DNA from: Microbotryum violaceum
Taxonomy: Eukaryota
Length of the DNA: 64,000 nt
Direction: 5' to 3'
NCBI GenBank assembly: GCA_001244265.2
Contig: LN717261.1
Span: forward strand, 2,681,591 to 2,745,590
Every line of letters starts with the position of its first letter. Positions within the stretch are counted from its first letter, which is position 1. Both the position numbers and the translations under genes were made by a program. Below, piece by piece: positions 16,845-17,068 of this stretch. The notes beneath the pieces are model-generated. The model was not told the origin of the DNA. It was given only the letters and a program-made list of their open reading frames with translations, and made no database searches.

Positions 16845-17068
16845 TGTAAGGCCCGTGCGCCTGGGCCTTATGAGAAGGGAGCGCGCGCCTGGACACTCTT
16901 AGTCTCCCCTCAGCGACTAACACGAGTGTCCAGGTGAGCCTATGGTGGATCAGAAGTCATAGTCATTGTAGCGACTAACACGAGTGTCCAGTGTTAATTC
17001 CACATACTTTGGTCCTGTGATACTCTCGTTGTCGCTCTCTGGTGTACACTCCTACGGGGTGTATTACA
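16845..17068 (+). mobile_element. Solo LTR (family D) with non-matching flanks
   Basis: Ends are TGTAA and TTACA. 22-bp direct repeats at 16912-16933 and 16970-16991. Flanks GCTGA/GCTTG belong to different elements. Confidence 0.7.

Follow-up and report, generated by a model that had tools for sequence, protein, structure and literature searches.

A candidate leader intron that ends in a copy of its own exon 1 inside a retroelement long terminal repeat of Microbotryum violaceum

Retroelements replicate through RNA and are therefore expected to lose their introns. A long terminal repeat (LTR) of Microbotryum violaceum, at positions 16845-17068 of the 64,000-nucleotide (nt) stretch analysed here (assembly GCA_001244265.2, contig LN717261.1, positions 2,681,591 to 2,745,590 of the forward strand; hereafter the window), raises the question of why what looks like a complete short intron should lie inside such an element and end in a repetition of the sequence before its donor. 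An earlier prediction for this DNA had proposed a real intron in which the repeated segment is itself branch point and acceptor, and in which a hairpin hides the first copy so that only the second is used. The reading preferred here, whose chances we judge to be about even, is that 16845-17068 belongs to a retrotransposon family with a genuine U2-type leader intron in its LTR (16934-16991 in this copy, forward strand) and is itself a solo LTR, recombinant and inactive. The 3′ end of this intron is best read as having been rewritten from exon 1 via complementary DNA (cDNA) made on spliced RNA. The unit, its parts and its flanks are:

16516-16844, reverse strand: left flank, a fragment of another dispersed repeat, with loose contig ends at 16516 and 16844
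16845-17068, forward strand: LTR of family C, 224 base pairs (bp), TGTAA...TTACA, a solo copy between two unrelated repeats
16845-16911, forward strand: U3-like part, with the box GCGCGCGC at 16881-16888 and then a pyrimidine-rich tract up to the first repeat copy
16912-16933, forward strand: repeat copy 1 (X1), an exact repeat and the proposed exon 1
16934-16991, forward strand: candidate intron of 58 nt, with donor GTGAGC, CTAAC and acceptor CAG
16934-16969, forward strand: Y, the unique 5′ part of the candidate intron, 36 nt
16970-16991, forward strand: repeat copy 2 (X2), the candidate 3′ end of the intron, with branch motif and acceptor
16992-17068, forward strand: Z, the U5-like remainder of the LTR, delimited by sequence, contig ends and homology to the related LTR E
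17067-17921, reverse strand: right flank, a truncated retrotransposon gag open reading frame (ORF) (Pfam DUF4939, 1.8e-07; Retrotrans_gag, 1.3e-04)

The limits given for the LTR in the original prediction proved to be the real ends of a repeated unit. Its termini, TGTAA at 16845-16849 and TTACA at 17064-17068, are of the TG...CA type and make up a short terminal inverted repeat. The locus was compared with contigs of four public runs at a likeness of at least 80% and, among the contig records listed, loose ends fall exactly at 16844/16845 and 17068/17069 in all four runs, with other sequence beyond; one contig of run X19 is identical to 16845-16972 and has a different upstream flank. LTR-type termini combined with sharp contig breaks and differing flanks indicate a discrete, dispersed, multi-copy repeat, of which 16845-17068 is the sole copy in the window. 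Other copies of the left-flank repeat run past 16844, and the gag frame on the right is cut by the LTR end, its other copies continuing differently before 17069. The borders do not form a target-site duplication (GCTGA on the left, GCTTG on the right). Unrelated flanks and unequal 5-bp borders together point to a solo LTR that has been rearranged or has recombined and that gives no sign of being active now. Simple insertion of an LTR into a gag gene was dropped as an explanation because the left flank is a different repeat, and a Helitron 3′ hairpin was dropped because the unit has LTR-type ends. The left flank may be the tail of a long interspersed nuclear element (LINE) endonuclease, to judge from motifs recognised by eye, on which Pfam is silent (the ORF at 16392-16898, reverse strand, gave no match in a Pfam search, like many other ORFs in the surroundings). 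Rfam covariance models run against both strands of 16600-17300 with E up to 1 gave no match, a tRNA scan found no tRNA, and metagenome pattern scans for the 22-nt repeat and for its junction returned no match each. A scan for bacterial promoters and terminators was also without a match, its models being bacterial and not applicable to a eukaryote.

The 22-mer AGCGACTAACACGAGTGTCCAG is present exactly at 16912-16933 and 16970-16991, an offset of 58 nt, with GTGAGC after the first copy, all of which can be read directly in the sequence as the original prediction had stated. No other match was found in the window at up to three mismatches, and two matches were obtained in none of 100 shuffles. 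The donor GTGAGC (16934-16939) follows directly after X1. CTAAC lies at 16975-16979 in X2, which places the putative branch A at 16978, 13 nt from the intron 3′ end, and X2 closes with the acceptor CAG (16989-16991). In its last 22 nt the candidate intron repeats exactly the 22 nt preceding the donor. The sequence features of a U2-type intron (GT donor, G at +5, branch motif, YAG and length) are all present, and 58 nt falls in the length range typical of fungal introns. When both strands of the 64 kb were scanned with the strict short-intron pattern AGGTRAGY..CTRAY..YAG, only two matches were recovered, one in this LTR and the other at 61233-61297 in LTR E, against 0.21 expected. Ten of the 12 nt before X1 in family C are pyrimidines.

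The second match lies in a relative of the first, which allows the two to be compared:

61133-61384, forward strand: related LTR E, with X1 at 61216-61234
61235-61297, forward strand: candidate intron of LTR E, 63 nt, GTGAGT..CTGAC..TAG; repeat and intron together span 61216-61297

The two LTRs are homologous over their whole length, with 126 of 218 aligned columns identical, and the homology extends to Y (20 of 35 aligned positions identical), so the X-Y-X structure is older than the split between C and E. Between the two families X differs at seven of 19 positions (in a count that starts two bases ahead of the branch motif and runs to the acceptor); within each family X1 and X2 are exactly equal. 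Divergence of X between C and E, with X1 equal to X2 in each, indicates that the end of the exon and that of the intron have evolved in concert. The marks of the predicted 58-nt intron, complete in C, are kept in E: the donors are GTGAGC and GTGAGT, the branch motifs CTAAC and CTGAC, with the putative branch A 13 nt from the end in both, and the acceptors CAG and TAG. Variant copies of C carry 16977 A>G together with 16979 C>T, which gives CTGAT, still within CTRAY, and in a diverged C copy, represented by a single contig of run X15 (depth 18.2), X1 and X2 each contain an extra G at the same point, behind the tenth base. As judged from these alignments, the putative splice signals are conserved among relatives while neighbouring bases vary.

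Upstream of X1 lies a segment complementary to it, and the two can form a hairpin:

16886-16904, forward strand: 5′ arm, from folds, the list of pairs and compensatory changes relative to LTR E
16915-16936, forward strand: 3′ arm, comprising most of X1 and the first 3 nt of the donor

The inverted copy, CTGGACACTC-TTAGTC, occupies 16889-16904, one base to the left of the place given in the original prediction, and pairs with 16915-16933 around a 3-nt bulge, so that the predicted pairing with copy 1 holds. The stem runs three pairs into the donor (16934-16936), and the last 10 exon bases are also paired. For the forward-strand RNA of 16880-17000 the minimum free energy (MFE) is -47 kcal/mol (z -3.9), a value equalled by none of 200 shuffles; the reverse strand folds less well (z -3.1). 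LTR E folds into the same shape, with an arm, a pyrimidine-rich loop, X1 with a 3-4 nt bulge and the base in the donor (61186-61203 with 61216-61238). The compensatory changes for which covariation had been proposed as a check are present. In the 13-pair lower helix seven pairs are invariant between C and E, one is changed on one side, four are changed on both sides and one is lost, so that 12 of 13 are kept, and in the C/E alignment 89.5% of cells pair, compared with at most 38% when the partner is slid. A variant common among copies, 16893 A>G, gives a G-U pair on the forward-strand RNA and a C-A mismatch on the other strand. Family F, introduced below, has an analogous stem in which the last 10 nt of X1 are all paired upstream (MFE -32.7, z -5.0 against mononucleotide shuffles). 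The full stem is absent from four of the seven families that have the repeat: none of the last 10 nt of X1 is paired in A, B and D2, and six of 10 are paired in G.

Two scans asked for the same layout elsewhere in the window, one for exact direct repeats of at least 14 nt with a unique spacer (X-Y-X) at a spacing of 35-200 nt, the other, tolerant of mismatches, for GT..AG segments that close with a repetition of the exon end. In seven of the 11 exact-repeat loci (B, A, C, E, G and both D2 LTRs) the repeat ends at AG/GT on one strand, the chance of AG/GT at a given boundary on either strand being about 2/256 (about 0.008) per locus. The four loci without AG/GT (19341-19569, 21288, 34959 and 57009) are short tandem arrays or imperfect repeats. 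The mismatch-tolerant scan adds family F, together with two by-product rows inside the A and D2 repeats. Besides C and E, the candidate introns are:

4221-4317, forward strand: family B, 97 nt, with the GT two bases inside the repeat; repeat and intron span 4141-4319
7313-7380, forward strand: family F, 68 nt, from the mismatch-tolerant scan; repeat and intron span 7290-7380
11025-11105, forward strand: family A, 81 nt; repeat and intron span 10965-11105
28157-28236, reverse strand: family G, 80 nt; repeat and intron span 28157-28250
38763-38839, reverse strand: D2, 3′ LTR, 77 nt, in the same Copia element as 43172-43248; repeat and intron span 38763-38887
43172-43248, reverse strand: D2, 5′ LTR, 77 nt; repeat and intron span 43172-43296

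The layout in which the exon end equals the intron end thus recurs in at least seven retroelement leaders of the window. In the six leaders besides C the repeats measure 14-82 nt and the introns 63-97 nt; the repeats of A, B and D2 are long (about 48-80 nt) and that of G is 14 nt. All seven families have G at +5 of the donor and a pyrimidine at +6, the acceptors are CAG in four, TAG in two and AAG in one (G), and a strict CTRAY is found in four (C, E, F and G). In six of the seven at least 10 of the 12 nt upstream of X1 are pyrimidines. Comparison of the downstream regions of the leaders by tblastx revealed no shared proteins. The claim that the repeat itself is branch point and acceptor consequently describes family C correctly and does not extend to G, where CTGAC lies outside the 14-nt repeat, nor to the three of seven families that lack a strict CTRAY.

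Two further resemblances among these units were noticed. TTGCA(A/G) stands a few bases before X2 in four of the seven Y segments (A, 11025-11045; F, 7313-7357; D2, 43220-43248, reverse strand; G, 28171-28236, reverse strand) and may be a 3′-end or promoter signal; the Y segments of A and B both start with GTTAGT. Alternating GCGCGC boxes lie upstream of the pyrimidine tract in all LTR-like units read (16881-16888, 61141-61147, 10920-10950, 4044-4056 and 21220-21235), and may represent a shared promoter element.

In both families of known orientation, A and D2, the GT..AG segment lies on the sense strand of the element. Both are Copia elements by Pfam (RVT_2, rve), the D2 ORFs being on the minus strand, and in both a distance of 11-23 nt separates the intron from the LTR end, after which comes a GGTTAYGAGCC primer site. 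This site is presumably complementary to the anticodon arm of the initiator tRNA, as in Drosophila copia.

28361-33235, forward strand: Copia element of family A, apparently complete, with a frame of 1237 amino acids (aa) for gag, protease, integrase and reverse transcriptase (RT) and a target duplication ACAAG
38739-43412, reverse strand: second Copia element, D2, with pol split over three overlapping frames, frameshifted

The family-A element has LTRs about 97% alike and the primer site GGTTATGAGCC, and the 81-nt intron is absent from both of its LTRs. The intron-bearing A copy is a solo LTR (10841-11116) with a perfect target duplication, TACAA. Three of the four family-A LTR copies lack exactly the 81 nt, which is the predicted spliced product. 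D2 carries its 77-nt intron-like unit in both LTRs, with two differences between the repeat copies in the 3′ LTR, both of them CpG transitions. The F leader, which precedes a forward-strand ORF, and the G leader, with minus-strand ORFs downstream in which a YMDD-type motif was seen by eye, are looser fits on orientation.

Both states of the leader also occur in family C. One contig of run X17 joins 16911 to 16970 and so skips exactly 58 nt; the joint is ambiguous over 22 nt, and the skipped segment becomes GT..AG if the cut is shifted by 22. This contig ends at the LTR limits and differs by nine letters and three gaps in 99 nt; the same joint was not seen in the contig records listed for the other three runs. 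It shares diagnostic changes with the run X15 contig that keeps the 58 nt, so both states exist in one subfamily, and since the intron is common to C and E the form without the 58 nt represents a loss.

A mechanism that would account for the layout is a self-regenerating intron: a leader intron within R, from whose spliced RNA strong-stop cDNA lands on X2 and restores the intron in both progeny LTRs. We put this forward tentatively, as a possibility that is more probably wrong than right. Transcription would start right after the pyrimidine tract, making X1 the whole of exon 1; in a basidiomycete yeast gene a ct box is reported to stand immediately before the start point (PMC4624585). The RNA would end at the end of X2, so that R would be X1-Y-X2, and the A/T-richer motifs in Y are possible 3′-end signals. 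In the 5′ LTR copy splicing would join X1 to Z, and the 3′ copy would be unspliceable because no exon lies downstream of it. Spliced RNA would be the only molecule in which X stands directly before Z, and for this reason the X2/Z junction in the DNA resembles spliced-leader cDNA. Minus-strand strong-stop cDNA made on spliced RNA would be the complement of X1-Z and could anneal to X2 of the unspliced 3′ R, rebuilding U3-X1-Y-X2-Z, with X2 overwritten by X1 in each cycle; landing on X1 instead would yield intron-less LTRs such as those observed.

The hairpin would have a place in this scheme in the families with a short exon. As its 5′ arm lies upstream of the proposed start, the 3′ copy would be the one place where C, E and F could form it, and there it could sequester X1 and the donor, block splicing and steer the transfer to X2. 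In these three families it would thereby set the choice between splicing at the 5′ end and 3′-end formation with transfer at the other. A possible motive for keeping a leader intron is that introns strongly raise messenger RNA (mRNA) levels in basidiomycetes: intron removal greatly lowers mRNA accumulation in Cryptococcus (PMC3744415), and further work listed on this subject concerns Armillaria and Ganoderma. Three other ideas about the unit were dropped: Y as a decayed primer-binding site inside the LTR, as it shares only GGT(T) with GGTTAYGAGCC; self-priming of the Tf1 type, as the complementary pair lies 135 nt inside the LTR and not at its end; and cDNA synthesis across a lariat branch or intron circle, as the joint coincides with the acceptor and not with the branch A, and X is still present in the intron-less form.

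The same features have been weighed under other explanations. Possibly nothing is spliced here, X-Y-X being a neutral 1.4-copy tandem repeat produced by RT template switching or replication slippage, its splice signals fortuitous and its hairpin a palindrome of promoter DNA. Reverse transcriptase does delete and duplicate between short direct repeats in retroviral replication, the copy lacking 58 nt is what slippage would be expected to leave, and the window contains the four short tandem structures without AG/GT listed above; the low information of fungal splice signals (PMC4408805) agrees with this too. We nevertheless regard it as unlikely, for AG/GT stands at the repeat boundary in seven of 11 loci where about 0.008 is expected per locus, all seven donors have G at +5, the sense strand is used wherever it is known, and the branch motif varies only within CTRAY. 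Moreover, Y is never duplicated, so X-Y-X is not a plain tandem duplication, and slippage alone deletes, leaving unexplained how X1 and X2 are homogenised with Y kept. The original prediction, a real intron whose first branch point and acceptor are masked by the hairpin, is clearly unlikely as it stands. The stem is conserved with compensatory changes and does cover CTAAC and CAG of copy 1, as claimed, and a donor-like GTAAGG at 16846-16851 could partner the copy 1 acceptor in transcripts that read through the LTR start. The stem, however, takes in the whole of copy 1 and 16934-16936 as well, pairing the last 10 exon bases and the first three donor bases, and so masks the very donor it was meant to serve: if it formed in one RNA with them, the proposed splicing would be impeded no less than the first acceptor would be hidden. 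An acceptor in copy 1 needs an upstream donor, which would be absent from a transcript that starts just before copy 1. Masking also leaves unexplained why X1 equals X2 while X diverges between families, and fits poorly with a branch motif outside the repeat in G and with the long repeats of A, B and D2, which have neither strict CTRAY nor stem.

Two further explanations accept a real intron. The repeat might be kept by selection or gene conversion, for instance as a second initiator or start site or as a protein-binding site needed twice, with no part for spliced RNA in replication. Leader introns are retained in retroelements in the case of Penelope (PMC2377424), and TTGCA shortly before X2 in four of seven Y segments could be a promoter or processing element. 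We find this quite improbable, because it offers no reason for the right edge of the repeat to fall exactly on both splice junctions, and gene conversion over tracts of 14-22 nt lying 36-66 nt apart would be unusual. Alternatively, Y might be a tiny mobile insert resembling an introner, bringing its own donor and making a long target-site duplication, X, that serves as branch point and acceptor; introners do supply one splice site while the target duplication supplies the other. Transposable elements (TEs) and solo LTRs are described as acting as introns (PMC12130899), and the TTGCA shared by the Y segments of A, D2, F and G and the GTTAGT start of those of A and B would suit such an origin. 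Duplications of 14-82 nt, however, far exceed any known target-site duplication. Y is homologous in C and E at the same position and hence inherited, not re-inserted; neither the 22-mer nor the sequence around it is found elsewhere in the window, the mobile unit being the 224-bp LTR; and the cases all occupy one position in the leaders of retroelements, on the sense strand. This last explanation is accordingly very improbable.

Several points weigh against the preferred reading of a genuine leader intron rewritten from exon 1. Splicing is read from DNA and contigs, and none of the runs listed is on record as RNA, three of those compared being guessed to be RNA. The contig that skips the 58 nt is a diverged family copy, comes from one of the runs classed as RNA by guess and may derive from DNA, and slippage of a polymerase or RT between the 22-nt repeats would leave a deletion identical to the spliced product. 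The small information content of fungal splice signals makes chance look-alikes common (PMC4408805). A, B and D2 have no strict CTRAY, the G acceptor is AAG, and the repeat copies of F differ at two positions. The covariation comes from two sequences, with the observed score reached by 34 of 500 shuffles, and a three-way MAFFT alignment and fold of C, E and F put the F arm in the wrong place and contributed nothing. For family C the sense strand is assigned by analogy of layout with A, D2 and F, and the start and poly(A) sites are placed from the layout of the sequence; both are provisional. The borders have no target-site duplication, so nothing shows that 16845-17068 ever functioned at its present site. 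The comparative evidence comprises one 64-kb window and the contig tables of four public runs.

The window is rich in transposons, and includes a Kelch-repeat ORF whose nearest Atlas cluster is commonest in Basidiomycota, a lead at most. Two related elements on the reverse strand, 23341-28250 and 57404-60371, are 67% identical over about 850 nt; in their long ORFs a YMDD-type motif and a tail resembling RNase H were recognised by eye. Pfam found in their ORFs only a weak RVT_1 match in one (E 0.067), and among Atlas neighbours of these ORFs RVT_1 occurs in 13-40% of members, a weak lead. They may be tyrosine-recombinase retroelements, and the one running from 28250 to 23341 may be DIRS/Ngaro-like, going by the motifs seen by eye and the weak Atlas lead. 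The solo LTR of family A at 10841-11116 and an inverted A copy at 15395-15585 enclose forward-strand ORFs of 617, 250, 192 and 233 aa, and these four ORFs of the block 10841-15585 matched no Pfam family. At 18665-19261, forward strand, an ORF fragment with Pif1 2B and helicase C-terminal domains is probably a Helitron remnant; a tandem array of 60-67 nt units (19370-19569) adjoins it. Other repeats are a direct pair of 524 nt (53132-53654 and 63479-64000), 10.3 kb apart and 96% alike, the second cut by the window end, and an inverted pair of 190 nt (51266-51455 and 52230-52419) with 774 nt between.

The closest described case is Penelope, which, like family C, has a short leader intron within a terminal repeat. 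This intron of 75 bp is located in the terminal-repeat and promoter region, 46 bp beyond the start site; spliced and unspliced RNAs are both made, the intron survives transposition and its deletion abolishes reporter expression (PMC2377424). The passages on this intron describe neither a copy of exon 1 at the intron 3′ end nor a hairpin that buries the donor. Penelope, moreover, belongs to the class with a telomerase-like RT and a GIY-YIG endonuclease, whereas A and D2, which share the layout here, are Copia by Pfam. Retroviruses face the same problem of a signal that is present at both RNA ends and active at one: their 5′ poly(A) site is suppressed by the major splice donor, and R-region hairpins aid first-strand transfer, homology in R guiding the transfer of strong-stop DNA. 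The donor of a retrovirus is usually situated past the LTR or in R, kilobases from its acceptor, and we know of no retrovirus with a complete intron inside the LTR or an exon copy at the intron end. In split-intron retroviral vectors an intron is re-created in the provirus by reverse transcription; these are artificial, with donor and acceptor in different parts of the LTR, whereas the arrangement in C is natural and has a duplicated exon 1. In the Rogers model a segment containing AGGT is duplicated in tandem, and splicing removes one unit and restores the original. That model duplicates the whole unit; here Y is unique and only the exon end is repeated, inherited and homogenised. Splicing can remove Copia elements and solo LTRs as introns (PMC12130899). 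In introners the whole TE is an intron of a host gene, whereas in C a 58-nt intron lies inside the LTR, in the leader of the element itself. A literature search, with most subscription journals and supplements outside it, found no description of an LTR intron that ends in an exon copy.

How the few retroelements that bear introns manage to keep them is the question addressed by this locus, and it is a weighty one where fungal introns strongly raise mRNA levels (PMC3744415). Several unrelated families in which the intron end co-evolves with exon 1 would be the trace, left in the sequence, of spliced and unspliced RNA recombining in the course of reverse transcription. The layout also provides a signature that can be searched for in the leaders of TEs, namely an exon end equal to the intron end with the repeat boundary on AG/GT. 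If the proposal is true, it would describe a natural route by which an intron is rebuilt in each cycle, giving an element the benefits of splicing without loss of the intron on retrotransposition.

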